A stretch of 64,000 nucleotides of DNA, from NCBI GenBank assembly GCA_965645245.1, contig OZ287068.1, forward strand, positions 62,001 through 126,000. The letters run 5' to 3'. This document shows positions 40,324 to 64,000 of the stretch, in pieces. The position numbers and the translations under genes are program-made. Below the pieces are notes generated by a model. The model made no database searches, was not told the DNA's origin, and saw nothing but the letters and a program-made list of their open reading frames with translations. Positions within the stretch are counted from its first letter, which is position 1. Every line of letters begins with the position of its first letter. The stretch is from Massalongia carnosa. Its lineage: Eukaryota.

Positions 40324-41944
40324 CTAACCGCCCCATTCTTATCCATCGCGGAGTCCTTTCCATACACCTTGACGGACAATCTAACAAAGATCCCACCGGG
40401 CCCATTGAAGAAAGAAGGCTGGGAGAAACATTTGGCCAATCACCCGGATCGCACTTACACACAAACAATTATCGATATCATCACCTACGGTGCCAAAGTT
40501 GGTTATACAGGACCACATCAACTCATTATTAGCGATAATCTTGCCTCTGCAAATGAGGCACCGGAAGTTCTTACCAATGACCTCGAAGAACAAATAGCTA
40601 GTAATCGGTTGGAGAAAGTCAACAACATTCCTTCTTGCTTTATATGTTCCCCATTAGGCCTTGTACCAAAGGCTAACGGTGGTTGGCGGCGAATCCATCA
40701 TCTATCGTATCCGGAGAGTAGCTCAGTCAACGACCACATACCGGAAGACTGGGGCTCCCTGGAATATACCAGCTTCGACGAAGCCATTAGGTTGATTGAG
40801 CAACGCGGGCCAGGGTGTATTCTTATTAAAAGAGACTTTGCGGACGCTTTTCGCCACATACCAGTAGCAAAAAACGATTGGTGGTTACTAGGTTTCAAGT
40901 GGCAGGATTCCTTTTGGATGGATAAATACTTACCCTTTGGGCTGAGAACGTCGCCGTTCCTTTTTGATCTGTTCGCGAAGGGTATCAACTGGATATTGTA
41001 CAACTGTGGTTGGAAAGACGCTATTCATTACTTGGATGATTTTTTGATAATAGTCAGCACCGGACCAGATGCTGAAAAGTTTGATCAAGTTTTCCACAAC
41101 ATTTGTAAAGATCTTGGCATGAAAATCAAGCTCGAAAAGAACAGAACTGGAACGACTTGCGATTTCCTCGGCATTGAAATCGATACCGCGCTCATGGAAG
41201 CACGCTTGCCTTCCGAAAAGTTACTAAAAGCAAAGACCCTAGTATCGGCAGCTTTGAATAAAAAAGCCATACCTACCCAGGAAGGAACTCGACTCTCTTC
41301 TAGGATTCTTATGCTTTGCAGCCAGAGTGGTAAAACCAGGAAGAGCATTTCTACGCCGTCTTTTCAATGCTACGGCAAGCGTAACCTCTAAACTAATCCA
41401 TCTTAACAAGGACATGAGGGCTGATCTTCTATGGTGGCATCATTTCCTACCTAAATGGAATGGCATACATCTGCTCAACCGTACTAGACATACTATGAGA
41501 ATATGGACAGATGCGTCCGGCTCATATGGTATGGGCGGCTTTATCCTCAGCGAGGATCAAAATTTGCATAATATACAAGCAGCCCGGCAGGCTTTTAGCA
41601 CACGCTTTACTACGCGCCTTAGGGCAAAGCATATCAACGTCAAAGAAATGACAGCAATTCTTCAAGCTATGAAAAAGTGGCTACCTATATGCAAGGGTAG
41701 TCATTTAATCCTCTATTGTGATAGCTACGCTGTCACGAAAGGAGTGAATAAAACCTCTATACGAGGCCAAGCAATGCATGCCCTGCGGGCAATTACAATG
41801 CTAGCTGCATTACATGATATCCAGATAGAAGCGCGATGGATATCATCCAAAGAAAATTATATTGCTGATCTCTTGTCTAGAGGACTTTTGAAGAAACTGG
41901 CTGACAAAATCCCTCAGTTTCAGGCTCTACCCTCAGCAATATAG
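40324..41944 (+). CDS. Ngaro-1 RT-RNase H (in frame with gag; frameshift at ~41272)
   Basis: SPLGLVPK, WRRIHHLSYP, DFADAFRHIP, LPFGLRTSP, HYLDDF. WTDASG, INVKE, CD, NYIADLLSR. A TACC duplication at ~41268-41277 shifts the frame. Confidence 0.9.
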
Positions 41945-42960
41945 GACGCGATCCACCCCCATCTTGGTACAGTGAGGTACCTCTAGACGAAATCGCAGCA
42001 CGATACCTCTGGTGGGGCCTGGCCACTAAGACAAGATCTTTATACACAACGGCAAGAAAGGGATACGTTCTTTACTGTAGGGTAAACCTCAACGCGCCAC
42101 CATTTCCAGCCAACATCCGGACGCTGTCTTCGTGGATCGCAGCGTTGGGTGAACGACGCCTGCAACCAAAAACTATTAAGAGCTACTTGACGGGCATAAG
42201 ATCATGCCAGATAGATATGGGCCTCGGTAATCTCGACGTATTTCATCACCCGGTGTTAGATCGCATCCTTACTGGCATAAAGCGAAAGAACGGTGAAGCC
42301 GAGAAACGTGAAAGGTTACCAATTACTAGAGAGATCTTAATCAAATTGCTAAGTCGTCTTGATCAAACGAAAGAGAAAGGCGCAAATTTACATGCGGCGT
42401 ACTGCTTAGCGTTTGCAGGCTTCTTACGAGCCGGAGAATTTACTTACACAACGCAAGATGTACTAGACCCAAGCTTTGATCAATGGCACCTCACCAGAAA
42501 ATCTATTAGGTTCGAAGCAGATCACCTACAGCTCTCTCTACCAGTCTCCAAAACCGATCCCTTTCGCCGAGGCATAACACTGACAATTGCGGCTACCAAC
42601 GATGTTGCTTGTGCACTAGCTTCTCTTACAAATTTATATAGGCGATTCCCAAGTTCTCCGGCCGCACCACTCTTTAAAAACGGTCAGTCCTTCACTCGAG
42701 ACTACATTACAACAGCGATGAAATCCACCTTAAGGAACTTGGGCTATATAGGAAATTTCTCTGGCCACTCGTTCAGAAGAGGTGCGGCAACAACAGCGCG
42801 ACGGGCAGGACTCACCGAAGACGAGATTCAGATGCTAGGAAGATGGAAGTCAGACGCATACAAGCTTTACATACAAACCCACCCCACTTACCTTCTTAAC
42901 GCCTCAAAACGCCTTCAAACATTACCCACGGAACCTCACAATCCAGTCACTAGGTCCTGA
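41924..42960 (+). CDS. Ngaro-1 tyrosine recombinase (frame open from ~41905, no early ATG)
   Basis: AFAGFLRAGE (Arg), SKTDPF (Lys), GHSFRRGAAT (HxxR), LGRWKSDAYKLYI (Trp, Tyr). Confidence 0.93.
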
Positions 42961-45360: not shown

Positions 45361-45541
45361 GGTTGCCACAATGCAGCCACAACAGAAGGGACGATATAAC
45401 TTTCGGCCAAGATAGCTACAGAGTCGGGGAGCAATTCTACGTGATCACAATGACTATTGAGGGCTTGTATGGGTAACGAATGCAATTTCTAGTGCTAGCT
45501 AAAAAGTGCGAAAGTTGAAGTAAGTTTCGTGGTTTTGTTAG

Positions 45542-47285
45542 CTAGTTCGTCTATGGCGAGAGCTAGTGCGGGACCGATGCTATTCGGCTAACAGCGGATT
45601 CGGCTACCAGCGGATCGGCTACCAGCGGTTCTCCACGCATGACGGGGACAACAGTGATGCAAAATCCGGACCTCTTCGGTTTTGCACGGTTATCCGCCAG
45701 GAGCTGGTTCGGATAACGACGGGGGATCGGATAGGGAAGGATGGATGACAAGGGGGAGATGGAGGCTATATAGAGGGCCGAAGCAGTCCTACATCTCCTC
45801 ATCATTTCGGATTCGGAGGTAGCACTGCATAGTAGTTTTTGAGTCCGATCCAACAATCCTCCAACCTAACGAACAATCCATCCTTCTTCCCTTCTTCATC
45901 TTCGATAAAACACGTATAAACCTAGCTCCGCTCTACTCCCTTCCATAAACAGAATGCCTACTAGCCGCCGCATTGCGTCCACCGCCGACGATAGCGGCCC
46001 CACTGGCCCCCTCACCCCCCTTGTGCCTGACTCTTAGCCGACCTCCGCAACAATGCAGGCCGGCCAGCCAGCGGAAGAAGGGCCTACACGCCCCGGTACC
46101 CCTGATGAGCTACTTGAACTTCGCGTACAACGCCGAAATGAGAAAGCTTAGGAAGGAAATTGTCGACAGACAGGCCGCGTTGGAGGTGGAGGAGGTCCCT
46201 ACGGGATTTCAGCATGGGGGATCCCAACTGACAAATCAGGCCTTTCAGGCAAGTCTACGAAGAAATCTATCAATATCAGCAAAGGTCTGGAGGTCATTAC
46301 TGGCGAGGATGACGCATCGTTGAGCGACATCAAGGGTATCACCCACCTAAATCGTTGTCTTTTGGTATACTAGCAAGCGGAATTGCACTTTTCACAACCA
46401 AGTCTGTTCAAAGATCTAGTGTCAAATGTCAGCTATACTGGCATTAACCAACATTGGTCAACGGGCCCGTCACATGCCCGTCACATGACATTGCCACCGC
46501 GGCACAGGTAAAAATTCTTCATTCCCCACATTCTTTCTTCCTTCGGAGACATCTCTTGATCTATCCCCTGGCGGCATACCTAGCTAGAAAATCATCTATA
46601 GATCAATGCCATTCATTTCACCTCATCTGGTCAAGACGTAAATCATCTCAACTGATCATCAGGGCAAAAAGCCTCAGATCTAGCAAGGGCCTTCATGAAA
46701 TACGAGGACCGGCTGATTTTGCTTCACAATACCTACACATGGGAGTCGTTGCTGCAAGTTCATATGCTATTTCATAGAACGCTGTGGTATCAAGGAGTGG
46801 ACGACCCCGTAAAATGGAGGCAAAGCTACCCAGACTTGGAAAACACATACCTGGTTAAACGCGACAGGCCTCTCAATAACCTTCAAACCCGGACCGGATT
46901 TGGGGGATACACAACCAATTCAAACAGCAATACTCCAAGGCCCTACCCTTGCCATCGGTATAACACAGGCAAGGACTGCCGAGACTGCAGATATCAACAC
47001 GTCTGCAGCAACTGCGGGAGACAGCACCCAGCATTTAGTTGCAGGGGCAACAACCCCAACAATAGCAACCCAAGTAGCCAATCTCGTAACAATCCGAATT
47101 GGACACCGGTCAATAGGAAGGATTGACTAGCCGGCCCATATGACCATATCGCGGAAGGTTTTCCGTACAGACTGATGGACAAACTCGAGGCTCTTCAGCA
47201 AGGACCACTCATCCTCGCCGGCTGGAAGAAGCACCTAGAAACTCACCCCGATAACGTTTACAAGCAGGCTATTTTTGATATTATT
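45542..47285 (+). mobile_element. Degenerate 5' fragment of the Ngaro-2 family (A end, broken gag, start of RT)
   Basis: Starts CTAGTTCGTCTATGG and matches the reverse complement of 54599-56267, with deletions and an insertion. Confidence 0.9.
46420..46676. mobile_element. 257-bp TG...CA insertion, probably a solo LTR
   Basis: Absent from the homologous gag at ~55205. Flanked by GATCTAG at 46413-46419 and 46677-46683. Confidence 0.7.
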
Positions 47286-47286
47286 C

Positions 47287-48033
47287 CGTCGACGAATCCA
47301 ATGTCAGTCGTGCCCTCAGACGACTTGGTTGGAATCGAAAGAAGGTGAGACGTCAGGCAGCTCAACGGAATCAAACTCTACGCGACGGTTGGATGCAACG
47401 ACTAGGAGGTTGGACTGCCGAGCAATTGGTCTTCCTAGACGAAAGTGCCGCGTGTGAAAGAACCGGTATTTATCTTCCTATCTTCTTCTCATCTTTCTTC
47501 TCATCTCATATATAGGTGATCGTCGATACGGCTGGGCACCGGCCGGTGTTCCTGCGACCATGGTTCAGGATTTGAGAAGGTCAAAGAGATGGAGCATTCT
47601 TCCTGCATTTACGGTCGATGGATATATAGCTTGGGAGGTGCATCAGGGCTCCATAACTGCATCGATCTTCAATGATTTTGTTCTAAATCACGTCCTTCCT
47701 CATTGCACTGCCGACGGAGGTCCTAGATCTGTTTTAGTGTTAGATAATGCTCGAATTCATTGGAATGACGATCTCATTCAGATGTGTGAGGCTGCCAACG
47801 TCACCTTGGCAAGACTACCTCCTCATTCTCCGGATTTCAATCCAATTGAGACGTCGTTTGCATTGCTGAAAGCATGGATTCGTCGAAATGGAGAGATGAG
47901 TCTCTCATATACAGAGGTGTATGGAGAGTTCGGACAATTTCTTCGGGATGCAGTCAAAGAAAGAAGTCGAATGGGAGACCCGGGAAATTTATTTAGAATG
48001 GCCGGTATTCAGTATCCCACTATTCAGATCTAG
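47287..48033 (+). pseudogene. DD34E Tc1/IS630-family (DDE_3) transposase, 5'-truncated
   Basis: VSRALRRLGWNRKK...LVFLDES, intron 47466-47515, GDRRYGWAP, VLDNARIH...LPPHSPDFNPIE (34 residues between D and E). Confidence 0.9.
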
Positions 48034-48084
48034 ATCTAGATTGCTGTCTGCAGACATCTTGTCTGTCTCATTTCGAAATCTAAT

Positions 48085-50196
48085 CTAATATTCTTCTTCG
48101 GCATAGTCGTATTCTAGATTATACGTATTTTCCAACTCATCCTCCTCAATGGCATCTTCCATTCTCGGATCAACCCTTTTTATCTCCCCTAGTGTCTCAT
48201 CCACCTCTTCCTCATCCACCTCTTCCTCATCCACCTCTTCCTCATCCACCTCTTCCTCATACACCTCTTTTATGACCTGAGTATTGGCCTGAGTGGTCAT
48301 TTGCGAAGTTGGCAGGTAACGTGGACGTCGAGACATTTGCCGAGACGGGGGCGGAGGCATTCGCCGAGAGGAAGGCGGAGGCATTTGCATCTGCATCTGT
48401 CTTCCAAATTTGCTGACATCTCGTGCCAGCTGAATTCCGATGGAGGAATACTCAGCTTCGACCAGAAGGACTGATGCTCAATACCCTTTAATGTCTGGAT
48501 AGTCATTAAATCGTACCCACCTTCCATCAGTCGATCGTACGCATGCCTCAGTACGCCTTTCAGATGAGGTTTGGATTGGATATGCCAATTGACATAGTCT
48601 TCCAAAGCTTCCTCCACTGGACTGCTCGGAGCGGCGGGAGGGGCGACGACGGAGGGGGCATAACTTCCTTGACGATCTCTTCGATCCACAGGCGTTTCGT
48701 CTCGATGACGTCCGAAGTCGGAAGCTTGAGAAGGAGAATAAGAAGGAAACTGGGACGAATGAAGCTGGGGAAGTGGTGAAGAAGGAATAAATGCCGAGGG
48801 GTTGGCAAATGCTGAGGGGTTGACAAACGTCGAGGGGGGGGCAAATGCCCAGGGGGGGAAGGATTGATACGCGGGATGCTGATAGATGGGATGCAAATGT
48901 CTGGTCGAATCTTCCTGACTTTCCTGTTTCGGAGTCGATGATGCAGTCTTCCTTTTACCTTTTTGCGAATACATACTTTCCCTGATAGTCGATGGAGGCA
49001 TCTGAGAAGTGACTCCCGAAACGTCATCATCCAATGCCTTATTCCAAGCCACGAACTGATGACTGCTGATAATGTAATGTTGATCTCTTTCTTCATCGTT
49101 CCAACAGTATCGGCCGAAATTCTCACATGTCTTCTTCTTACAGACATGCAGAGATTGTAGAGCCGTCATTCTTTCAACTGTCTGACCATGAAGAATGGCC
49201 CTCTCCTCCAACTCCTTCTGCAATTTCAAGGTGGCCGTTCCCAACTTTTTGGAAACGGCAGCAGTCAGATCTTCTGGAATTTCACCGCTTTTGGTCCGAG
49301 CGAATTGATAGATTAGATCGACGGCCAAACTTTTTGCTCCATTCTCATATCGGAAAATCAAGACTTCTTCAATTGGAAGCCAAGACTCTTCCAACATCAG
49401 AGACATACGTTCTTGAGGTTTGATGCCATTCCTTGCAACAGTGGCTTTGACATTGACTAGTCGACAAGCAAAAGTTTTGTCATCTGCATGACGTTGAGCC
49501 TTTAAACTCATCTCATTGAGATGAGGTCTGAAAAAGAATCTCTTTTCGAATTCCGATTCCGAGTTAACTTTTCGAGTACTGGACATCTGATGAACGACAT
49601 CCTTTTCAAACATCACCGTCACATTCAGCAGGTAGGTGATGACAATGGGCGAGTCTGACGAGGGCGTCTTCTTGGTCTTGGTACGTGGATTTGACTTTGG
49701 CTTTCTAGTAGTGGCATTTTTGACAATCTTCTTTGCAGCAGAAACGAAAACATTCTCCTCAGCACTCTCGACTTCTTCCTCAACATTCCCCTCGGCAATC
49801 TCCTCGACATTCCCCTCGACACTTTCTACATCTACGTCATTCTCCGAGTCAATTGTATCATCTTCGTCATCCGGGACCATTAGGGATGCATAATAATTCG
49901 AGCCGGGAGGCGGCCTGGGCTTGATAATGGGAGGGGGCTTTGCTTTGGGAGGCTTTGCTTTGGGAGGCTTTGCTTTGGAAGACTTTGCTTGGGGGGGGCT
50001 TTGTCTTGGGAACGATCTTTTGCCAGCGAGATGCCTTCGGAGCTGAGGTTGGCGTCGATATGGGATCATCGTCGTCGACAGCATCTTTGCCCTTCGGCCC
50101 CGCCAAAGTCAGTTTTATCTTTGCCTTTACAGGCTCTGTCGAGGCATTTGGAGGCCCGGTATTCGCTCGTTTTGAGCGAGGACCTCTTAGTTTCAT
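48085..50196 (-). CDS. Uncharacterised protein A (Cys/His motif, SAM-like C-terminus), frameshifts at ~49995 and ~48440
   Basis: Long ORF pieces 50196-49995, 49995-48440 and 48440-48085. CKKKTCENFGRYCW...HY. Homologous by eye to 59960-61849. Confidence 0.7.
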
Positions 50197-50433
50197 GTCA
50201 AAGAATAGGGGGGAGACTTTGACGAAAAATAGAGCGGGCAAGGGCGAAGGAGCTGGGGATGGCAGTGACTATATTCTACAGCTACGAATTTCAGTACTAG
50301 AGCAGGTGACAATGCATAGTTACCACATAGACGGTGAGGGAAGTTTGGCTGGTTGGTCGTTATTTTCGCTAAATTTTGAGGTGTCGTGGCCATTTCAGGG
50401 TCCGCGCAGACCCTTTTGCAAGCGACAGTACGT

Positions 50434-51574
50434 TACCAGCTTTCGGGAGGGTCGCGTGCTAAGATTTGAGTAGAAGTTCCTGTAAATTGGGCCATTTGTT
50501 AGCGATTTTCTCCAATTTGCCCCGCGATAGGAGGTCAGCGAGCTCATTTGACTTTGTTGGGATCCAACGTATTTCAATCCGAATATCATGAATAGCGGTC
50601 AGCATTGCGATTGCCCGAAGGGGCCGCATAGCGTTTCCACGAATAGATGATTTCCTTATTCCTGACGTGACAGCAAAGTTGTCACAGTGGAAAATCACAT
50701 GGCTCCCTGCACAAAGGGGGAGCCATTTACGCAAAGCGTGTAATATCGCTGTCATTTCTTTGACATTGATGTGAGTTGGCCTAAGCCGAGACGTGAAACG
50801 TTCAGAAAGTGCATGCTCAGCAGGCATGGTAAAACTGGTATGATCCTCCACTAGGATGTAGGCCCCAATGCCGTACCCTGATGCGTCCGTCCAAAGACGA
50901 AATGTCTCGCGAGGACGGTCTAACATGCGAATGCCATTCCATTTAGGTAAAAAAAGATGCCACCACTGCAGGTCGGCTTTGATATTCTCGTTAATATGAA
51001 TATGACGCCCACGAGACATGGCTTTTGCGTTAAAAAGACGTCGGAGGAAAGCTCTCCCTGGCACTACCACTTTAGCTGGAATGACAAAAATCCCACCAAG
51101 GAGTCTAATTCCTTCCTTCTAATCGATGATTTTTGCAAGGCCTGTTTGACGAGGTCTTTGGCTTTCTGCAGTTTGTCTGGTGGTAGCCGTGCTTCCATGA
51201 GCATAGTATCCAATTCAATGCCTAAGAAATCGATCACATGACCAGTTTTATTTTTCTTTTCGTTGACTGCGATTCCAAGGTCTTTGCAAAGATCGAAGAA
51301 GTACCGAGTGAAAGCTTCCGCTTCGGGATTAGTGCGGCAAACTGCCAAGAAATCATCTAGATAATGAAGCACATCATGTTGATTTTGTAAACACATCCAA
51401 TTTATCCCCTTTGCAAACAAATCGAATAGAAAAGGAGACGTGCGCAAGCCGAAAGGTAGAAAGCGCTCCATCCAGTAAACATTATCCCATTGAAATCCCA
51501 GCAACCACCAGTCGCTTTTAGCCACGGGTATATGGCGAAAGGCGTCGGAGAAATCCCTTTTTACTAATATGCAC
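50434..51574 (-). mobile_element. Internal fragment of the Ngaro-2 family (RT C-terminus, RNase H)
   Basis: Near-identical to 53127-54267. Confidence 0.92.
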
Positions 51575-52156
51575 TAGAGGCGAAAGGGCGGATGCTGCTG
51601 TCGATCTTTTGACTAAACTGAGCGAAAGTGATGATCCACTTTTTGAGGAAGTGTCGTCCGATCCTTTTAGTGAGGATGAGGAGATGAGAGAGGAGGAAGG
51701 TGAGGAGGAGGAGAGGAGTGAGGAGGAGGGTAAAGAGGATGAGGGGGGGGAGGACGATGATGAGGAGTAGGATTTCGGGTAAAAGGAGTTTATTTAAATG
51801 AGCTCTTAACTTTTTATCATTATACCCGTTTGTAAAATTGTGTGCCGAACTTTGAACCCCGAAACTGCGCGGTAAAAAAAAAAAAATAAGTGACAGAATT
51901 GGACCACACATCAGAATTTGGTGCAGTAGTAAATGGCCCTCCTCCCCTTCTTACCGCCTTTTGCAGTCTATAAGCTAGTTCATGTGACCTCGTATTGCTT
52001 CTATTTCTAAGGTTGGCGGAAACACAGCGATCTGCACCTCGCTGGCGCCGTCACTCTCGCCGGCGCCTCTACCTAGCGCCCCCTTTCGGGCCTTGGTGCA
52101 GATCGCGGTGGATACTCCCAAGCCCAAGATGGAAACGGCTCGCGCGGCGATGCTGT

Positions 52157-53172
52157 TTAGGAGGCTGAGGGAGGGTGTTGAAAACGGCGTGAGGTGGCTA
52201 AGATGTGGGATTGATGCGTTTGGATATAAAGCTTGTAGGAGTCTGACTTCCACCGGCCTAGTAATTGAATGTCGTTCTCGCTAAGACCGACTTCCTTGGC
52301 CGACGTCGCTGCACCTCTTCGGAAAGAGTGACCTGAATAATTACCTGTTATGCCTAAGCTCTTAAGCCCTGATCGCATCGCGGTGGTCAAATATTCGCGT
52401 GTGAAAGCCTTTTGTTTATAGAATAAAGGGGAGGTTGCAGGTAGTGGAAACCGGGTGATCAAATTACGAAGGGATTTTACCGCGCAGGCCTCGTCCCCTG
52501 ATGCGGCTATCGTTAGCGCAATGCCTCGACGAAAGGGGTCGGTTTTGGACGCCGGCAAGGAGAGGAACAGCTTATCTGCTTCTAAGTGGACGGATTTCCT
52601 AGTTAAATGCCATGATTCGAAGCTTGGGTCTGTTAGGTCTCTGATAGTGTACGTAAATTCGCCTGCGCGAAGAAATCCTGCGAATGCCAGACAGTATGCT
52701 GCGTGTAGAGTGGCCTGCGCGTTGTCGGTTAAGTCCAATCGTTTCACTAAACGAAGGAGTATGTTTTTCGTAATGGGCATTCGCTCTTTCTTGTCGGCTT
52801 CGCCATTCTTTCGCTTTATGCCGGCAATGATTCTATTTAGTACGGGATGGTGAAACGTTTCTAGATCCTCAAAGCCCGTGTCGATTTGGCTGGACCGAAC
52901 TCCGGCTAGATAGGCCTTGATGGTTTTGGGCTGTATTTTGTGTTCTCCTAGCATCGCTATCCAAGATGACAAAGTCTGTATGGTTGCCGGAAATGGAGTC
53001 GCGTTCATTGATATTCTGCAGTGTGTTACATAGCTTCTTCTCCCTGTGTCATACAGACTGCGGGTTTTGACTGCCAAGCCCCACCACAGGTATCTAGCTG
53101 CTGGTCGGGATAGAGGTATTTCGCTATACCAGCTTTCGGGAGGGTCGCGTGCTAGGATTTGAGTAGAAGTTC
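52157..53172 (-). CDS. Ngaro-2 tyrosine recombinase
   Basis: AFAGFLRAGE, SKTDPF, GHSFRRGAAT, LGRWKSDSYKLYI. Confidence 0.93.
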
Positions 53173-54758
53173 CTGTAAATTAGGCCATTTGTTAGCGATT
53201 TTCTCCAATTTGCCCCGTGATAGGAGGTCAGCGAGCTCATTAGACTTTGTTGGGATCCAACGTATTTCAATCCGAATATCATGAATAGCGGTCAGCGTTG
53301 CGATTGCCCGAAGGGGCCGCATAGCGTTTCCACGAATAGATGATTTCCTTATTCCTGACGTGACAGCAAAGTTGTCACAGTGGAAAATCACATGGCTCCC
53401 TGCACAAAGGGGGAGCCATTTACGCAAAGCGTGTAATATCGCTGTCATTTCTTTGACATTGATGTGAGTTGGCCTAAGCCGAGACGTGAAACGTTCAGAA
53501 AGTGCATGCTCAGCAGGCATGGTAAAACTGGTATGATCCTCCACTAGGATGTAGGCCCCAATGCCGTACCCTGATGCGTCCGTCCAAAGACGAAATGTCT
53601 CGCGAGGACGGTCTAACATGCGAATGCCATTCCATTTAGGTAAAAAAAGATGCCACCACTGCAGGTCGGCTTTGATATTCTCGTTAATATGAATATGACG
53701 CCCACGAGACATGGCTTTTGCGTTAAAAAGACGTCGGAGGAAAGCTCTCCCTGGCACTACCACTTTAGCTGGAATGACAAAAATCCCACCAAGGAGTCTA
53801 ATTCCTTCCTTCTAATCGATGATTTTTGCAAGGCCTGTTTGACGAGGTCTTTGGCTTTCTGCAGTTTGTCTGGTGGTAGCCGTGCTTCCATGAGCATAGT
53901 ATCCAATTCAATGCCTAAGAAATCGATCACATGACCAGTTTTATTTTTCTTTTCGTTGACTGCGATTCCAAGGTCTTTGCAAAGATCGAAGAAGTACCGA
54001 GTGAAAGCTTCCACTTCGGGATTAGTGCGGCAAACTGCCAAGAAATCATCTAGATAATGAAGCACATCATGTTGATTTTGTAAACACATCCAATTTATCC
54101 CCTTTGCAAACAAATCGAATAGAAAAGGAGACGTGCGCAAGCCGAAAGGTAGAAAGCGCTCCATCCAGTAAACATTATCCCATTGAAATCCCAGCAACCA
54201 CCAGTCGCTTTTAGCCACGGGTATATGGCGAAAGGCGTCGGAGAAATCCCTTTTTACTAATATGCACCCTTTTCCTTGTTGTCTTATTTTGGCGACAGCG
54301 TCATCGAATGTGGGGTATTCCAAGGCCCCCCATTCCTGAGGGATGAAGTCATTTACCGACGATCCTTCAGGATGAGATAAATGATGGATACGGCGCCATG
54401 TACCATTTGATTTGGGTACGAGACCTAATGTGGATGATATGAACTTGGAGGGAAGAATATCTACTCGCGTCAATCGTCCCTTATCCCTCTGCTCCTCGAC
54501 ATCTTTAGTGAGTATATCAGGAGCTTTTTTTGCTGATAGTAGATTGGGGCTGAGGATGAATTGTTCTGGGCCGGTATACCCAATCTTGGCCCCATACCGA
54601 ATAATATCAAAAATAGCCTGCTTGTACACGTTATCGGGGTGAGTTTCTAGGTGCTTCTTCCAGCCGGCGAGGATGAGTGGTCCTTGCTGAAGAGCCTCGA
54701 GTTTGTCCATCAGTCTGTACGGAAAACCTTCCGCGATATGGTCATATGGGCCGGCTAG
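53152..54758 (-). CDS. Ngaro-2 RT-RNase H (1-nt frameshift at ~53770)
   Basis: LGLVPK, WRRIHHLS, LPFGLRTSP, HYLDDF, WTDASG, INVKE, NELADLLSR. Confidence 0.9.
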
Positions 54759-55953
54759 TCAATCCTTCCTATTGACCGGTGTCCAATTCGGATTGTTACG
54801 AGATTGGCTACTTGGGTTGCTATTTTTGGGGGTGGGTGTTGCCCCTGCAACTAAGTGCTGGGTGCTGTCTCCCGCAGTTGCTGCAGACGTGTTGGTATCT
54901 GCAGTCTCGGCAGTCCTTGCCTGTGTTATACCGATGGCAAGGGTAGGGCCTTGGAGTATTGCTGTTTGAATTGGTTGTGTATCCCCCAAATCCGGTCCGG
55001 GTTTGAAGGTTGTTGAGGGGCCTGTCGCGTTTAACCAGGTATGTGTTTTCCAAGTCTGGGTAGCTTTGCCTCCATTTTACGGGGTCGTCCACTCCTTGAT
55101 ACCACAGCGTTCTATGAAATAGCATATGAACTTGCAGCAACGACTCCCATGTGTAGGTATTGTGAAGCAAAATCAGCCGGTCCTCGTATTTCATGAAGGC
55201 CCTTGCTAGATCTTTGAACAGACTTGGTTGTGCAAAGTGCAATACCGCTTGCCAGTATACCAAAAGACAACGAATTAGGTGGGTGATACCCTTGATGTCG
55301 CTCAACGATGCGTCATCCTCGCCAGTAATGACCTCCAGACCTTTGCTGATATTGATAGATTTCTTCGTAGACTTGCTCAGAGTAACGTCACTGCACATCT
55401 TGGCGATATTGATGGGGTCAAACTTATTTTCCAAACTTTGCTTGAAATACAGCTGGTTTATGGCCGGAAAGTCACTTGTCAGAGGGAGGATTCTTGGGTC
55501 ATCCGTACCTTCGCTCTGAAAGGCCTGATTGGTCTGTTGGGATCCCCCATGCTGAAATCCCGTAGGGGCCTCCTCCACCTCCAACGCGGCCTGTCTGTCG
55601 ACAATTTCCTTCCTAAGCTTTCTCATTTCGGCCTGGCGCCCCTCTCGTACCAAAATGTCGCGTTGTACGCGAAGTTCAAGTAGCTCATCAGGGGTACCGG
55701 GGCGTGTGGGCCCTTCTTCCGCTGGCTGGCCGGCCTGCATTGTTGCGGAGGTCGGCTGAGAGTCAGGCACAAGGGGGGTGAGGGGGCCAGTGGGGCCGCT
55801 ATCGTCGGCGGTGGACGCAGTGCGGCGGGTAATAGGCATTCTGTTTATGGAAGGGAGTAGAGCGGAGCTAGGTTTATACGTGTTTATCGAAGATGAAGAA
55901 GGGAAGAAGGATGAATTGTTCGTTAGGTTGGAAGATTGTTGGATCGGACTCAA
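54759..55953 (-). CDS. Ngaro-2 gag-like ORF1 (frameshift near 54830; likely ATG at 55839)
   Basis: Homologous to Ngaro-1 gag (FDPINI.K.C.D, GEDDASLSDIKGI). CHRYNTGKDCRDCRYQHVCSNCGRQHPALSC. The copy at 46695-47126 shows the unshifted end ...PVNRKD*. Confidence 0.88.
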
Positions 55954-56350
55954 AAACTACTATGCAGTGCTACCTCCGAATCCGAGATGATGAGGAGATG
56001 TAGGACTGCTTTGGCCCTCTATATAGCCTCCATCTCCCCCCTGTCATCCATCCATCCCTATCCGATCCCCCGTCGTTATCCGAACCAGCTCCTGGCGGAT
56101 AACCGTGCAAAACCGAAGAGGTCCGGATTTTGCATCACCTGTTGTCCCCGTCATGCGTGGAGAACCACTGGTAGCCGATCCGCTGGTGGCCGAATCCGCT
56201 GGTAGCCGAATCCGCTGGTAGCCGAATAGCATCGGTCCCGCACTAGCTCTCGCCATAGACGAACTAGATAGTACGATTAATGATATCCTTTTGCTTGTCG
56301 TTTGTATAAACTTTCAACGTAGTTATTCCAGTCATCATGCCTCGAGAACC

Positions 56351-57770
56351 ACGTGGGTGTCAAAAGTTTTTACCTAATGGGGGTCAGGGCCCCTCACCAA
56401 AATTTTCAAGGCACCTCACCAAAATCATCAGAATTTACCATAGATCGGATTTTATTGCTTTGCTCTCCGTCGCTATTAATCTCTTACATCGATCAGGCAT
56501 CTCCTTAATTCGGGCCCGAATTTCATCTATAGATATTTTGTCCCATTCATCTAGAATCACCCGTTTTAACTCTCTCACATTGTTGCACCGTCGCCGTCTA
56601 ACTCGCTGTTTCAGAATATTCCATACCCCTTCCGTTGGATTGAGATCAGGGGATTGCGGAGGATGATTCAATGTTTCAATCCAGCTAGCTGCCTTGAATC
56701 TACGTACGATATTGTCTGTAGATCGTGTGCCGTGACTAGGATCGTTATCTTCTTGAAAGATGCAAAATCGATCATGAAAAACACGACATTCATGAATTTC
56801 AGTCATATAGCCGGGAAGCAGACGCTCCGTATAATAAGCTTGAGTCATGCTATTGCCTTTTGATTTAATCTCTAAATCGTGAGGTAGAGATGCCTCCCAT
56901 TCAGCTATTCGCTGACGATGATCATGCTCCGTTTCATACTTCGACTTGCGTGGTTTTCTGGGCTTGTGAACCTGAATTTCAGGCGCGTCGTGCTCGTCAT
57001 TGTAAATCGTCAGCGGCCCTTTATGATGCCACGAAATAGAAGCGGCCAAAATGCAGTTTTACTCCCTTCATGTCCGGCACCTTTTGCATGTTTTCTGACT
57101 CGTATCTAGTGCCTTACTCTCGAAGAACTCGCTCTTGGTACGTTTGATTCGGGTCGAAATGAGCCTCATCCGTGAAATGAACGTACGGCCAGAAATTCTC
57201 AATAGTATGATTTTCATGCTCTTTCCCGTATAGAACTCGTAGTCGCTCGTTTTTCTGACTGAGCGTTTTCACCTTCGCTTTTTTAAATCGAGCGGCACGA
57301 GGTTTACGAGCACTGAATGCTCTTTGCAGTGTACGTCGCGTTGCATCTATATGAAAGTGCTCTAATTGTACGGTGTACGGCTGATCGCGAACGCTATTTG
57401 TATGTGGATTCAGCATCTGATTTATCAACTGAGTGCTCACTTTTTTAGGTCGACCGCTACGAGAACGTCGTCGATAGGCGACGTCTTCAAGACGCTGGCG
57501 TTGCTTCAGCCAATATTTTCCTCGATCGAGCTTGATGCTCTCCTGCTCGCAGACATCTTTGATGGTGACATTTTCCGGCCGATGATCAATAGCATGAAAA
57601 AAGCGGGTTTTTCTGATAGTATCAGCATCAGGGGATTTTTTGGCCTGTGGTGGTGGAGTAGATGGTGCCATGGTTGATTGGAGGAGGAAATCTAAAAAAA
57701 ATTTCATCCACATGGGGGATTTTCGCTTAAAAATCCTACCTCATTAGGTAAAAACTTTTGACACCCACTG
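56351..57770 (-). mobile_element. Tc1/impala-like DNA transposon
   Basis: ~30-bp TIRs GTGGGTGTCAAAAGTTTTTACCTAATG at ~56353-56380 and ~57741-57768. Termini and TA TSD are degraded. Confidence 0.88.
56435..57671 (-). pseudogene. Tc1-like transposase (DD38E spacing) with a stop at 57114 and a frameshift at ~57050
   Basis: RSGRPKK, VHFTDEAHF, FQEDND...HPPQSPDLNPTE. Confidence 0.88.
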
Positions 57771-58302
57771 TGAACAGTCTTTTAAACAGCCTCTTAGACA
57801 GCCCCCCAAACAGCCCTCCAAACAACCTAGAAAACGGGCATCTACTACTGAGTTGCCTAGGAACTCAGCACCTCCATCCAAACAAAGACTTAGAATCAAT
57901 CCTCCTAGATCATCATCACCAGTTTTAAACACTTTGAACCCGACTATAGAACCTTCCTCTTCTGCCCGTATTACTGATCTTCTATCACGTCCACCTTCAC
58001 CATCCCCTCCAGCTTTGAAATCATCATGCTAGTTTTCATTATTCGAGCTCATGAACTAGTATTTAATGAGCTCTTTAATGATGAATGATAAATTCTCCAT
58101 AGCAACTCTTCATCTTATACATCAGGGTCATACATATTGTCATTTATACATAGCCATATAGTCATAATCATATACTTATTTCAACAATTTTAGTTTGAAT
58201 AGAATTTGACCGCTTATAAATACGCTCTCTATGCTTAGATAAAACAGCAGTGTTCAATTATTATAGTTTATCAATAGCTCGTACAGAGTTTTCTATCATT
58301 AT

Positions 58303-59623
58303 TGTAATACGGATGGCGCTAGAGGGATACGTGATCGCCTACGGCGGTTGCGGGATTAACTAGCATGAGCCAAGCCGTAGTACTTAGTCGCATAGCCGTC
58401 GAGGTTGACACGACGCCACCTTGCCACACAACTCCGAATTAGTTGTTACTACGTTCTAGACTGCTTACAGATCAAACACCTGCCGAGGCCGTGGTGGTAG
58501 ATTGCCATAGAGTAAGGCGAACTCCTGTGGACACTAGCCGTGAACTCTATATGGAATCTACTGGCCTACTCGGAGCTACTCGATCTCTTGATGGATCAAG
58601 AGTTGTAGCAGGAGGCATGGCTAGCTGGACGCAGCTTGAGCTCGGCCTCCCCGATGTAAACTTCAGCTTCAATCTTTATTGCTACGTTGGTAGTGATGTC
58701 GGCTGAATGAACCTACATGACCTTGTGGTCTAGACCTTGTGTCTAGAGGCAGGTCCGCAGTGTAGATAGAGATTCAGTCGGAGGTAACCTTCCATCGCTA
58801 CGTTGGTAGTGGTGACGGCGAAATGAAGCTACATAGCCTCGGCGTCTAGACTTTATGTTTAGAGGCAGGCTAGCAATGTAGCGAGGGATCTAGCCGGAGG
58901 TAGAAGTGTTCTACCTTGCAAGGGAAGATCTAGAAGGCTGCTCGAGGCTGACTAGATGATCCAGCGAACGTCGAGTTCGTAGATGGATCCTGAGGGATTG
59001 TTGGATGTAAGGCGATAAGGTCAGAAGTGGGTTGCAAGGCTCCTAAGATTCCAAGGCTCACAAGGCTATAGGCTTGGGATAAATACCAGAACGAATCCTG
59101 TAGTATTCGTTAGCAATTAGTCTTTATTCTATGAACAACCTACGTTTGGGTCTCGGACGAGATCTCTTGGTCTAAGCACTTCCACATCCATTAGTTCTTT
59201 GGATCACGTATACTCTCGGAGACTAGCACGTAGACTAGCACGTAGTAGCTATCTTCCACCTCTCACGCTGAGCATTTCCCCTTTCGAGATCAGTGTCGCT
59301 CGTGATTAGCTTACAGGTCTCGTAGCCCATTACAGTTATCAAGACTCTATTCGTATTGTGTCGAAAGATAGCCTTTCGAAATCTTACACAATCTGTAACG
59401 GTTCGACCATGCGTGGTGCGGACGGCAGGACCTACAGCGAACATAGGAGGAGTCCCACTTATAGTAGAATTGAGCTTGGTCTGCGGACTAAGTATTGTGC
59501 CTTTTGGTCGGGAAGGACAGGTGGCGCAATGGTAGAAATCTATTCACTATCTCGCTTCGTCACACAATCAAAACGAAATTCATGAGCGTGTGATAAATAT
59601 ACGACTTCAACAAAGTAACGACA
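58303..59623. mobile_element. Degenerate GC-richer TG...CA block, possibly a long solo LTR or non-autonomous element
   Basis: Sharp composition change against AT-rich flanks. TTAT on both sides. ~116-bp internal imperfect duplication (58681, 58797). No long ORF. Confidence 0.45.
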
Positions 59624-59959
59624 TTATAACAAGCTGTCAAAACTTTATTGTAATTTCATGAAAACGATATTTCAAAGAAGATTCAAGATATTATTTATTA
59701 TTAGCCTCATTCGCAATTGATTCATCGATGAAAATTCTAATTCTGTTACAAGAATCTAGATCGCTTCTATCACGTTTATTTGTATCGAAAGTAAAAGAGT
59801 ATTAGCGTATGCAAAATGATTTGCAATTTCGCTTATGAAAACACATACCACCAACATGACCCCACCATTCAAACTCCAAAATCTTAATTTTCCTAGATAT
59901 TCCCTACACCAAAATCCTAACATATTTTTATAATTTGGTAGACATCTATAGAAATTATT

Positions 59960-61849
59960 ATGCCTCCAAATAGACGGAGTAAAAACGGACCAGTTAACCA
60001 AGTTTTGCTGCCGGCACCGACTCGGGGGGGTCGTCGCCGCCAAGTTCCTGCTCGCCTACGAAGCTCGCCCACCCCTCTTGGTCCTAACCCTCAAACCCCG
60101 CTCCAGGGTGCACGCCGTCCCCATGAGAGCCCTCCTAATCCTCCTAACCCTCCTTCTTCTCCTCCTGTCGGCGCCCGTCTTCCAGCCCCTCCACTGTTTC
60201 CTCCCTTAGATGCTCGACCTCGACCCCCCCCCGGTTCCACGCCGCCCGAGTGCGCGTGACGACCATACACCGGTATTCACCATGAAAACGCCCAAGATTC
60301 CCGGCAATACTCGCGAGGGGAAGGCGGAGCGTATGTTATGGCGTGCACATTTGGAGAGAAGCAAGGAGGCCGCCGCGCGAGCAAGAGCGAGACGAGATAG
60401 GGAGGATGAAGAATGGGAAGCGGAGGTCAATCAATTCGGGGAACCGGAAGCCCGACGACGACGACTGGAAGAAATAGAGGTTAATAAAGAATTAGACAAA
60501 TTGACTACATCGAACTTTGAGGAAGATGAGGCTGAAGATCTAGTATCAGATCCTATGTTGACCGTTCATGCTAGACTTCGTGTCAATGGTAGAGTTATAT
60601 GGACCTCATCGCTAGGTTCTAAAAAACGAAGCGTTTCAGCATATGGGATTTCGAACAGACATTGGAGACTGAGATTGAGAAAAGGAACGGGCATACTAAA
60701 GGATAGACGACGACCTCCATCGTCGTCATTATTAAGGCCATTCATAGTCGGGCCAGGAATGTCCATCAAACCATTGATAATTATACTGAGACTGAATGGG
60801 AAAAGGCTCTAATTGTCATTGATGATGAATCTCGTAAATGGAAGCCAGATATCACTATTAAGATCGAAATTTCGATGGAAGAACCGAAGCAATCAAATCC
60901 CCCTGACATATTACTAGATGCAACTGAATCATCTACTATTATTACTACACCTACCTGCCGAAGGACTAGAACTCATCAATTATTAGAACGTCAACGAGAT
61001 CAAGGTGAGATCCTTATTAATGCAGGTGATTTTGATAGACAATTGGTGAATCGATGGGTTTGTCACGATGCTCGATGTACGAATCAAAATAACTTCTGTT
61101 TCGTTGATGAAGATGGGCTTCATTATGATCTTTCTCATACATTGCAAAGAGATTGGGCTAAGGCTCTCGCTCGCGGCGACATCAGTGCTTCCCTAGATAA
61201 TCCAACACCAACATTGTATAGGTTCATACTACGACAGGGGCCGGTGGGTCTCAACTCTAGGAAGACGAGAATACAGGAAGGACGGGAGGATTCCAGAAAA
61301 GATCGCAATGAGACGAAAAGCTTCATGGGTAAAATGATGCAATTCACAAAGCAATCGATGGAAATGCGTATGCCGGAATCGATGATGGACCAAATGGAAA
61401 GAATGGGTGAAAGAATGAGTAATGTTCGTCGCCCCCCTCCCCCTCCTGTTTATTCTCAACCATCATCTTCTTCGGTCCCCGAACCCATCATCCCCCCACC
61501 CCCTGCGGCACCGAGGCCTCGCTCGAAACCGTTGACTAGGTCAAGCCCCATATGCAACCCCGAGGATGAGGAGTTTGCTATGGAGGATTTCCTCAATTGG
61601 AAAGGGGAGGCATTGCAGAGTCAAAGAGCCAAGGATAGATGGAATGGGGTTAAGGAGATTGTTCAAAACGAGATGTGGTCTTTGGAGGATTTGAGAGATA
61701 TGTCAGAAACGAGCTCACATATATATAAACGGGCTATTCAACTGGGCATACCTGATGGATGGGCACGAGCATTCAGAACTGATCTCCGTACATTCAAACC
61801 GCAATGGCGACATGGAGTTGATGAGGGGATGTGCCATAGGAAGAGGTAG
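59960..61849 (+). CDS. Uncharacterised protein B (homolog of protein A), frameshifts at ~60228 and ~60645
   Basis: Pro-rich start, acidic tract, CHDARCTNQNNFCF...HYDLS...WAKAL, SSP...MEDFLNW, LEDL...QLGIPDGWARAFRTDL. Confidence 0.7.
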
Positions 61850-62125
61850 GAATAATTGGCTATATAGGTAGGGTTGGAAGGGTTGGAAGGATTATGCGTT
61901 TATGGATATTCGGGGTTAATCGATATCTTTTTTCATACTTATAATATGATGGAAACATTTGCATACATCAACACTCGTAATTCTAACAGCCGAATGGCAT
62001 CACACTATGCAAAAACACCTGTTTTTGGTGAGGTTTTACTAATTAGTTTACATGTAAATGAAGTCTTTTTTCTCGATTCTGTAATCATGTAATCAATATT
62101 TATAAACATTATAAATGATCAATAG

Positions 62126-63470
62126 TGGGGGTGTACATAGACACGAGGCTCAATTGGTCGGCGCACTACAAAGAGATACAGAAGAAAATGACGAGACAAA
62201 CGAGAGCGCTGACTAGAATCGCCGCAGCCACTTGGGGTGCGACCCTCCTACAAGCCCGTCACGTGTACACGGCGGTGGTACGCCCGGCAATGACCCATGG
62301 TTCTCTGGTATGGCACACGCCGGAGGAAACACAAAAGCACGTCAAAGTCACGAGGAAAAGCAAACTCGAGATCGTACAAAACAAATGTTTACGAGTAGTA
62401 GCCGGAGCGTACAGGGCCACACCCATCGAGGTGTTACAGGCGGAAACATTCATCTGTCCATTGACGCAACATTTGGATCATCTGCAGGCCAAAGGTAGAT
62501 CGAGGCTACAACACAACGGTCAGGCAAAAGTCATAGAACAGGCATGCGAGAAAATCAGAACGAGATTGAAAGGGAAAAGAGGGCGACAACGGATTATTGG
62601 AGAAACACCGGGAGCTCGTAGACAGAGATGGGTGGCCAAGCTGACAGCTGAAGTATCAACAAAGAGAAAGCCCAAACGCACACCACCATGGGAAAAAGCG
62701 GAGAATGCACAAGAGGAAAAACGAGCAGAATATGCCGCACTTCAAAGAGAAAGAGACGGAATCATAGCGAAACGATTTAAAGAAAAATGGAAGGACAAAT
62801 GGATAGCGTATCAATCAATACATACGCTTGATCCAACAATAGCACAGTCGGGTCCATTGCACAAAAACAGGTTGAACACGCACAAGCTGCTGAATAAGGC
62901 GCAAAGCTCCCTCGCAATTCAAATTAGAACAGAGAAAATCGGGTTAGCGAGTTTTCTATTCAAACGCAAGGTGCCAGACATTGAGTCCGCGGCCTGCCTG
63001 TGCGGAAGCCGCTTTCAAACGGCGAAACATGTGATAATGTTCTGCGGATTGCATAATAGAATCGATATGTTGCGTGCAGCTGGCTCGCTGGATTATCAAA
63101 AACTGATAACAGACCCCAAAGCGATCAAAATAATCACTGCATGGCTTATGCGTACGGGCATACTAACACAGTACACCATTGCCGCGCAAATGACGGAGCA
63201 ATAATGAGAGGAGAATTGGTTTTTTCTTCTACTTATTTTCTTTTCTTCTCTTTTATTCTTGCACTTACTCAGGCGCATAACGGGTATAGCGGGTTTCCCA
63301 AACCGTAGAGATCAACCCGGGGAAAGAGCGAGTCCTCTACAAACCTGGTACGCAGGAGCAGTTTTTTACCCGTTCGGGTTTTCTGCCTTTATATAGCCTA
63401 TGTAGTATCTCCCGCATGGGCCAGCTTCAGCTGGTGTCATATCGGCGTAAGAAAAATCAATCAATCAATC
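62126..63470 (+). mobile_element. 5'-truncated Tad1-like LINE (RT C-terminus, CCHC; no RNase H)
   Basis: GVYIDTRLNW, YTAVVRPAMTHG, GAYRATP, QIRTEKIGL, CLCG...HVIMFC (ORF ends at 63204). (AATC)n tail. 13-bp TSD AAATGATCAATAG at 62113-62125 and 63471-63483. Confidence 0.95.
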
Positions 63471-63640
63471 AAATGATCAATAGATCTTCTCAATATGCTC
63501 AGTTCGATTGTATCATAGAGTAGATTCAGGAGTGATTAATTTAATCAAAGATTTCCGAATTCAGGGGTTCTAGCCTAGATGTAGGTCAGATGTAAAATCC
63601 AGCCCAAAATCTGGTCCAGATCTGGTCCAGATTGAATAAT

Positions 63641-64000
63641 TCAATCAAAATCTATTTGCACCTCACCCCCATATAGCTCCCTTTCCAATTCAATGATGTC
63701 GGCCTCGAATATATACCCCCCACCCTCACCACTATGACTAAAGTGCTCTTTAGCGAAACGGTCACAATGGCTCCTGTCGATGGCAAATCGAATTAAATCG
63801 CTGAAGGTGCCCTCAAATTCAGAGGGAATTGAGGTATAATGGGTTCTAAACCAAGCCTTTAATACACTAAAACTCAACTCGATTGGATTGAAATCCGGTG
63901 AATAGGGGGGCAGATATCGTACTTCGCAACCGTGTCCACGAATGGCCTCCTCAATGCGTGGGTTGCAATGGATAGCGGCATTATCCATGACTATAACGCT
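63641..64000 (-). CDS. DD34E Tc1/IS630-family (DDE_3) transposase, C-terminal part (continues beyond the window)
   Basis: SVIVMDNAAIH...YLPPYSPDFNPIELSFSVLKAW; homologous to 47560-48033. Confidence 0.9.
   Translation of the reverse strand, partial: SVIVMDNAAIHCNPRIEEAIRGHGCEVRYLPPYSPDFNPIELSFSVLKAWFRTHYTSIPSEFEGTFSDLIRFAIDRSHCDRFAKEHFSHSGEGGGYIFEADIIELERELYGGEVQIDFD

Follow-up and report, generated by a model that had tools for sequence, protein, structure and literature searches.

Decayed copies of a probable two-gene DD34E Tc1-like transposon of fungi in a repeat-rich stretch of Massalongia carnosa DNA

The stretch of 64,000 nucleotides (nt) of Massalongia carnosa DNA analyzed here (contig OZ287068.1, positions 62,001 to 126,000; assembly GCA_965645245.1; referred to as a whole as the window) ends in 18 kb of nested fungal repeats that comprise DIRS-like, long interspersed nuclear element (LINE) and Tc1-like pieces. 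Among them are two transposase genes, designated Tnp1 and Tnp2, each paired tail-to-tail with a second gene, A and B respectively, of a protein family that we call the accessory family. Taken together, the evidence makes it probable that a fungal two-gene DD34E Tc1-like DNA transposon is represented in the window by decayed copies from two sister lineages. The features of the two pairs are as follows, in window coordinates.

47290-48033, plus strand: Tnp1, a DD34E Tc1-like transposase gene of which the 3' two thirds remain, with exons to 47465 and 47516-48033
48034-48084: spacer of 51 nt between the convergent stops of Tnp1 (48033) and gene A (48085)
48085-50196, minus strand: gene A, an accessory-family pseudogene of the A-type clade
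50197-50433, minus strand: upstream region of gene A, with a candidate element end (ACAG, then TA) at 50425-50430
59641-59959, plus strand: upstream region of gene B, with a 43-nt leader at 59915-59957
59960-61849, plus strand: gene B, an accessory-family pseudogene of the B-type clade, in frames 59960-60259, 60210-60812 and 60707-61849
61850-62125: left part of the B-Tnp2 spacer, ending with a target duplication (62113-62125)
62126-63470, plus strand: LINE insert, 5'-truncated and foreign to the Tc1-like element, with an open reading frame (ORF) at 62119-63204 and an (AATC)n tail
63471-63640: right part of the B-Tnp2 spacer, with the second duplication copy (63471-63483)
63641-64000, minus strand: Tnp2, also a DD34E Tc1-like transposase gene, represented by its last 119 codons and continuing past the window edge

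Both transposases are matched by Pfam DDE_3 (PF13358), with E 1e-24 for the Tnp1 ORF 47458-48033 (+) and E 3.8e-17 for Tnp2 63641-64000 (-). Since 34 residues separate the second Asp from the Glu in Tnp1 and Tnp2, as in their relative P0170 (hand count in the translations; DNA...NPIE, with E at +35), both are assigned to the DD34E type; the DD34E Tc1/IS630-like label given in a first-pass annotation, made from the letters alone, is thus borne out by domain match and spacing alike. The two share 42% identity across 77 amino acids (aa). Tnp1 has a near copy of 98% identity in P0160, and a fuller near copy of Tnp2 exists in P0171 (298 aa), to which the relative P0242 is 57% identical. The profile of Tnp1 and Tnp2 gave 1521 transposase matches, 120 of them listed, and PF13358 is present in all of the relatives P0160-P0279; P0170 carries PF13592, the N-terminal winged-helix region, as well. 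The Tnp1 frame is restored upon removal of a 50-nt intron (GT..AG, 47466-47515), which is supported by full-length P0170 (333 aa, 60% identity) reading ...ERTGDRKY... uninterrupted at that point. This spliceosomal-type intron sits just past the first catalytic Asp region, and there is none there in P0170; P0242 shows an apparent read-through intron at a position different from that in Tnp1. The 5' part of Tnp1 is replaced at junction 47289/47290 by a DIRS-like fragment. Tnp1 and Tnp2 are ordinary members of the DD34E Tc1 group, and it is the second, linked gene that departs from it.

The convergence of gene A on a transposase, noted in the first-pass annotation at 47287-48033 (+), stands, with Tnp1 proper starting at 47290. 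Gene A is frameshifted near 48438-48441, where the tblastn alignment of the intact near copy P0001 breaks (48438/48441). A second frameshift probably lies at the G8 run 49991-49998, since the N-terminal piece from 50196 is in a different frame than the 603-codon ORF and the run falls in their overlap. Homologs of gene A grade from P0001 (98%) and P0002 (97%) to P0003 (57%) and P0117 (25%). Its acidic tail at 48190-48260 is encoded by a (GAG GAG GTG GAT)-type repeat, giving EEVD five times, and P0001 has fewer units. The near copies of gene B are P0004, P0005, P0006 and P0008 (91-98%), with an intact relative, P0007 (632 aa), at 46%. Contigs of other sequencing runs have one base fewer at 60224 and an additional T behind 60633. 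Both sites coincide exactly with the frame changes of gene B, and less damaged or intact copies thus exist elsewhere. The LINE between gene B and Tnp2 is delimited by a 13-nt target duplication, AAATGATCAATAG, at 62113-62125 and 63471-63483, and without it the spacer measures ~433 nt. Together with contigs of three runs that skip the insert, this duplication proves what had been proposed from the sequence, namely that gene B converges on Tnp2 once the LINE is removed. The LINE tail is (AATC)n, not poly-A. At 88% identity the LINE family is missing from run X3 and almost so from run X10, though both hold the B-Tnp2 unit. Both elements are defunct in the window, with frameshifts in A and B, a cut in Tnp1 made by the DIRS-like element and a LINE between B and Tnp2.

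Genes A and B are homologous, weakly but really, as judged from protein sequence comparisons in which their similarity exceeds chance. Direct comparison by blastp gave E 5e-4 for the Cys/His region and E 0.03 for a colinear second segment (SSP...LED[YF]..W); hhalign of the two small families gave E 4.4e-5 at a probability of 69% over 131 columns; and the A-type P0117 aligns with the B-type P0007 from the knuckle through the C-terminal domain (21% across 296 aa, E 2.9e-8). The kinship suspected in the first-pass annotation, which would have fallen with a non-significant A-B alignment, was therefore recovered in several comparisons, and the ordered motifs that it listed for A and B are conserved columns of the family alignments. 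A family profile of five sequences, searched against 1.84 billion representatives, yielded 639 clusters (at 50% identity) at E<=1e-3, 220 at E<=1e-10 and 36 at E<=1e-30; because both types are in the profile, this search is by itself no proof that A and B are kin. The common layout begins with an N-terminus that is basic and often reads MPP.R, followed by an alpha/beta module and P..RRTRT..L, and continues with the knuckle motif W-x-C-x4-C-x-N-x3-7-C-[FWY]-...-H-[YF]-...-W-[AN]-x-A-[IL]. Next come a stretch that is helical and rich in Pro, SSP[IV] and then FF.W, and the tail reads W...DLK.MS....Y..A...GIPDG..R.F...L..FK..[WY]R. Conservation is at least 90% for Asn, His, Trp and all three Cys in a 98-sequence alignment, while in a 99-sequence alignment C39, C44, C51 and H59 are invariant and N46 is conserved. 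The knuckle motif was found in 95 of 159 family proteins, many of the others being fragments that do not include the knuckle region.

Pfam recognizes none of its families in the A and B pieces of the window, and scans of 37 and then 98 family members returned stray sub-threshold matches, otherwise none at E<=0.01. All named members are annotated as "hypothetical protein", and their source organisms are Polyplosphaeria fusca and the lichen-forming ascomycetes Cornicularia, Xanthoria, Calogaya and Pyrenula. One member, P0115, is from the Pleosporales, and look-alike clusters in the Atlas are largely from Basidiomycota. The gene is multi-copy, with near copies on at least 11 different large contigs, and many members are on contigs of 2.2-2.5 kb that hold no other gene. 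Scans with a three-sequence alignment found no relative in genome and viral contigs and one locus only, L001, with a B-type gene, in metagenomes. An NLR-like fungal gene, of which the N-terminal alpha/beta-hydrolase part (GLGADP..., GTPHRGT) is present at L001 364-1341 (-), stands head-to-head with the B-type gene at a distance of 0.2-0.5 kb.

The structure of P0007 modelled with AlphaFold2 from 98 aligned sequences has a mean predicted local distance difference test score (pLDDT) of 77, with values >95 in three modules (185-294, 319-407 and 542-631) and helices and disordered linkers in between. The first module looks like a beta-grasp domain. Residues 181-293 superimpose on the PB1 domain of NBR1 (2g4s_A) with Z 6.6 and a root-mean-square deviation (rmsd) of 3.7 over 86 aligned residues, a range in which a common arrangement alone is possible, and streptokinase and staphylokinase score similarly (Z 5.6-6.5, streptokinase domain B 6.5). 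Kinship to superantigens, raised by Foldseek with the whole P0007 model, was rejected: the rows were weak (E >=4e-3, rmsd 6-9) and are taken as generic beta-grasp resemblance. The Cys/His and C-terminal domains, for which structure prediction had earlier been advised, were both modelled. For the latter, residues 545-623 match the SAM domain of tankyrase-1 (5jti_A) at a weak score of Z 5.5 (rmsd 2.9, 62 of 63 residues, 23% identity); Pfam SAM (PF00536/PF07647) matched neither the window pieces nor the family members, and SAM-domain proteins make up the named Atlas clusters nearest to P0007 and P0117 (0.76-0.78), no more than a lead. The knuckle module of the window's gene B, folded alone, reached a pLDDT of 87, and its comparison with the PDB gave no fold match (best VIA Z 4.5, Foldseek E>2). 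Searched against PDB sequences, the family profile retrieved just low-complexity rows of huntingtin and Crk.

That the accessory gene and the transposase form a single two-gene unit is strongly favored by several lines of evidence. Logan contigs of four runs (X5, X10, X3 and X4) were compared with 56300-64000, and those of three (X5, X10 and X3) join 62112 to 63471, which means that gene B continues into Tnp2 without the LINE; no such contig is among the X4 rows listed. The clearest is record 14 of X3 (2032 nt), which covers 60286-62112 and 63471-63673 and so runs from the end of gene B through the LINE-less spacer into Tnp2. These joints may partly represent one locus in related strains, and they chiefly show the LINE insertion and the adjacency of the two genes. 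Run X10, from a different organism (organism C), covers only 59641-62210 and 63496-64000, with zero depth over 56300-59640 and almost none on the LINE, so that a second organism has B and Tnp2 at no less than 88% nucleotide identity without the flanks or the insert. Depth in X10 stays at 0 as far as 59640 and jumps to 138 at 59641, and with record 1 of this run spanning 59800-59937, the left limit of the unit common to organism C is placed within 59641-59800. X10 also holds an internally deleted form, joining 60066 to 61612, as in DNA transposon families.

Pairs more distant from those in the window are found on small contigs. An ENA contig of 4066 nt carries both the A-type P0117 (771 aa) and the Tnp1-type P0170 (333 aa), and JGI contigs of 4016 and 6629 nt carry the B-type P0157/P0009 (644 aa) and Tnp2-type P0242/P0281 (281 aa); 748 nt on the 4066-nt contig and 1235 nt on the 4016-nt contig are not assigned to either gene. 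Exact matches of contig size numbered three, as compared to 0.15 expected by chance (13 sizes against the 119 typed of 120 listed transposases), an excess with P ~5e-4, or 0.01 after removal of a doubtful match. Within clade A (P0001, P0003, P0117) the accessory proteins are 25-56% identical and within clade B (P0004, P0007, P0009) 34-48%, and across clades they align in part only; the transposases are 58-62% identical within clade 1 (62% for P0160 and P0170), 57% within clade 2 (P0171, P0242) and 32-39% between the two. The pairing is congruent by clade, with A-type going with Tnp1-type and B-type with Tnp2-type, and on these sequence comparisons the two genes have co-diverged across four pairs. 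Near copies of B are also present on all six of the large contigs listed for the Tnp2 cluster (P0171), which is weak evidence because these contigs are chromosome-sized. Finally, the two pairs in the window have identical tail-to-tail order despite a divergence so deep that A and B are alignable only around the knuckle.

With regard to element ends, the left end of the A-element is destroyed and the right end of the B-element lies past window position 64000. Record 15 of X3 (1093 nt) aligns over 357 nt with 63644-64000 and contains in addition a 43-nt piece equal to 59915-59957 on the opposite strand; record 13 of X3 and record 18 of X4 both begin at 59915. As read from the one contig, an inverted copy of the gene B leader would thus lie within ~740 nt past 64000, upstream of the Tnp2 start, which would fit expression of each gene from the inner portion of its own inverted repeat. 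Between the upstream regions of A and B there was neither a common terminus nor any other match, and a search of both for short repeats gave weak two-copy matches only, none of them inside 50197-50433. Position 50433, previously taken as an element end, is at most a candidate for one, 50433/50434 being the edge of a DIRS-like duplicate (50434-51574 = 53127-54267). The sequence ...ACAG TA CGT at that edge could be a candidate terminus followed by TA.

The element is accordingly pictured as two convergent genes, one encoding a DDE_3 transposase and the other an accessory protein of ~600-770 codons. This protein is predicted to be built, in order, from a basic disordered N-terminus, a coiled coil, a beta-grasp (PB1-like) module and an RTRT motif, after which would come a helix with the Cys3-His knuckle, a long helix, a Pro-rich linker, an SSP motif and a five-helix SAM-like tail. 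By analogy to the second protein of PIF/Harbinger elements, we tentatively suggest that it serves as a transposition helper. The Cys3-His knuckle module might bind DNA, another nucleic acid or chromatin, the PB1-like and SAM-like modules could mediate self-association, and the protein would so bring the transposase to the element ends or aid in assembly of the complex. Speculating further, an ancient, fungus-wide branch of Tc1/mariner might constitute a true two-component system, its transposase immobile unless the Cys3-His/PB1-like/SAM-like protein polymerizes on the ends or on chromatin, and a "transduplication" reported from Pyrenophora (see below) might belong to it instead of being a gene capture; we regard this idea as possible, though doubtful.

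Several observations weigh against the two-gene transposon. No terminal inverted repeats (TIRs) or TA duplications enclosing both genes were demonstrated, each element missing one end in the window, and the sole hint of a TIR is the single X3 contig described above, the 43-nt piece of which is unplaced relative to 64000. The two-gene transposon family of the first-pass annotation survives as a linked unit with a conserved second family, enclosure of both genes by shared TIRs and TA duplications being no more than presumed, and the zinc binding and the targeting or anti-silencing role that it proposed are conjectural. Matching contig sizes report co-residence, not orientation. The third of the size matches, P0264 with P0007 (3704 nt), is probably due to chance, for the sources differ (ENA and Logan) and the clades are discordant, and a second set of 18 contig sizes gave 0 of 18 matches, which carries little weight because 120 of the 1521 transposase hits are listed. 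L001, the only locus with flanks, shows just the 5' side of the gene, next to a host-like NLR-type gene. On the side of structure, the fold matches are weak for PB1 (Z 6.6) and SAM (Z 5.5) and absent for the knuckle module.

One alternative is that the A/B gene, while located inside the transposon, is anciently captured cargo (transduplication) with no role in transposition, which persists by riding along or by serving itself or the host, for instance by acting on chromatin or by evading silencing. The second ORF described by Manning et al. 2013 (PMC3538342), which is comparable, was explained there by gene capture, and this speaks for cargo and against a helper. Self-sufficiency of the transposase would point the same way, as it owns an N-terminal winged-helix region (PF13592, on P0170) and so may need no DNA-binding helper, and one-gene Tc1-like elements, a form represented in the window by a third transposase gene, Tnp3, work alone. 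Yet the association has persisted down to ~25% identity with congruent clades; the full-length architecture is conserved across 639 clusters, whereas captured fragments usually decay; and the members scanned gave no sign of a cellular parent gene belonging to a Pfam family. We therefore consider a passenger unlikely. An old, structured family that has co-diverged with the transposase argues for a standing two-gene transposon rather than for a recent capture.

Less probable still is that two separate entities are involved, A/B being a host family or some other repeat just downstream of which a Tc1-like clade preferentially inserts. Absence of demonstrated common termini, the host-like gene that precedes the L001 family member by 0.2-0.5 kb and the many members on 2.2-2.5 kb contigs bearing this gene alone would all agree with it. 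It is difficult to reconcile with a spacer of merely 51 nt between A and Tnp1, with organism C having B and Tnp2 at >=88% nucleotide identity and none of the flanks, and with near copies of B and Tnp2 occurring together on 6 of 6 listed large contigs; the congruent clades would moreover require co-speciation of target and inserter. The region is crowded with nested DIRS-like, LINE and Tc1-like pieces, and the genes could in principle be chance neighbors in a transposon graveyard, with a layout common to A and B only through composition. This we judge highly improbable, given that A-B homology is significant in several independent comparisons, that four pairs have matching clades and that the contig-size excess has P ~5e-4 (0.01 without the doubtful match). 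The two-gene transposon remains the preferred reading.

The repeats into which the two pairs are embedded comprise the following further features.

45539-47289, plus strand: DIRS-like 5' fragment (gag and the start of the reverse transcriptase), which truncates Tnp1
50434-56270, minus strand: DIRS-like tyrosine-recombinase retroelement, with further pieces at 45539-47289 (+) and 40417-42881; its parts are gag 54820-55956, reverse transcriptase 53757-54758, RNase H 53152-53811 and recombinase 52157-53179
56353-57768: Tnp3, Tc1-like and with a single gene, its ORFs lying at 56435-57058 and 57114-57740 (minus strand)

The 5' fragment at 45539-47289 is 91-98% identical to the reverse complement of 54596-56270, and its ORFs repeat those of the full DIRS-like copy. 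A piece of 1141 nt from the reverse transcriptase/RNase H region is duplicated in tandem 3' of the DIRS-like element (50434-51574 = 53127-54267, 99.5%), upstream of which lie the 5' fragment and an older copy at 64% identity. Tnp3 has inverted ends of 30 nt (56353-56382 and 57739-57768; beginning CAC(A)GTGGGTGTC) and is far more distant from Tnp1 and Tnp2 than those two are from each other. Two X5 contigs jump over it (56333 to 57786 and 56349 to 57830), resembling empty sites. Contig depth over 58099-59564 is 10-20 times that of the neighboring sequence in X5, X4 and X3 and zero in X10, and many contigs end with differing flanks at 59394 and 59564/59565. This segment, which is without a long ORF, looks like a very high-copy repeat of no recognized type, and an Rfam scan of 57700-60000 gave no match.

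Tc1/mariner serves in textbooks as the model of a minimal one-gene transposon that is independent of its host, and this simplicity accounts for its wide spread and for its use as a gene-transfer tool. The impala-type elements represent this one-gene form in fungi. One-gene fungal elements such as Tnp3 share with the elements described here the DDE_3 core, the DD34E spacing, the SPDFNPIE motif and a small size. They differ in that Tnp3 measures 1.4 kb as compared to ~3.5-4 kb here, and in the second, convergent and conserved gene of ~600-770 codons: instead of the single gene characteristic of Tc1/mariner, a second conserved gene is linked in four pairs. Within the same superfamily, the TBE and Tec elements of ciliates are IS630-Tc1 relatives with three ORFs. 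They are alike in having extra genes beside the transposase and unlike in their hosts, in the nature of the extra proteins and in their far larger size. PIF/Harbinger elements encode a transposase together with a Myb/SANT-like DNA-binding protein, and the second protein is required. There exists a mechanistic parallel, here a working model, in two-component cut-and-paste with a second element-encoded protein beside a DDE transposase. The differences are that PIF/Harbinger belongs to another transposase superfamily and that the accessory protein has no Myb/SANT match, featuring the Cys3-His knuckle and the PB1-like and SAM-like modules instead.

The closest known system is apparently the 3.4-kb two-ORF Tc1/Mariner element that Manning et al. 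2013 (PMC3538342) described from Pyrenophora tritici-repentis. In that report, the second ORF has a match to Osmo_CC (PF08946), the element is transcribed, 31 of its 46 copies have both coding regions, and a similar tandem pair exists on Alternaria alternata AM-BAC-13; the authors called it an "Osmo_CC transduplication", that is, gene capture in one species (PMC3538342). It resembles the elements of the window in being a fungal Tc1/Mariner of similar size, multi-copy and with two coding regions, which in Pyrenophora lie between TIRs. Size and layout fit, and the Pleosporales have members of the accessory family (P0115), so that it may be of the same kind. In the accessory family, PF08946 was found in 0 of 10 members at E<=10, and it is absent among 25 of 58 families listed for 98 members. 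Relative to the interpretation as capture, and with the second ORFs compared by description only, the second gene is here an old and widespread family that has co-diverged with the transposase. The notion of a two-ORF Tc1/Mariner element is thus not entirely new, and the premise of the first-pass annotation, that Tc1/mariner elements encode a transposase only, applies to the usual form though not to the Pyrenophora element (PMC3538342). What is new is that the second gene constitutes an old, large and structured family diverging alongside the transposase in at least two lineages. The literature searched, which did not extend to Repbase and subscription journals, describes neither this protein family nor a helper-dependent Tc1/mariner element, and the one two-ORF case that it yielded is that of Manning et al. 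2013.

If correct, the interpretation would provide a name and a context for hundreds of "hypothetical proteins" in fungal and lichen annotations that are now likely counted as host genes, and the curation of fungal repeat libraries and gene counts would change. A family of at least 639 clusters without a Pfam entry would be among the larger unrecognized transposon protein families of fungi. The Tc1/mariner superfamily, for all its standing as the minimal transposon, would also have evolved helper-dependent forms, as PIF/Harbinger did.

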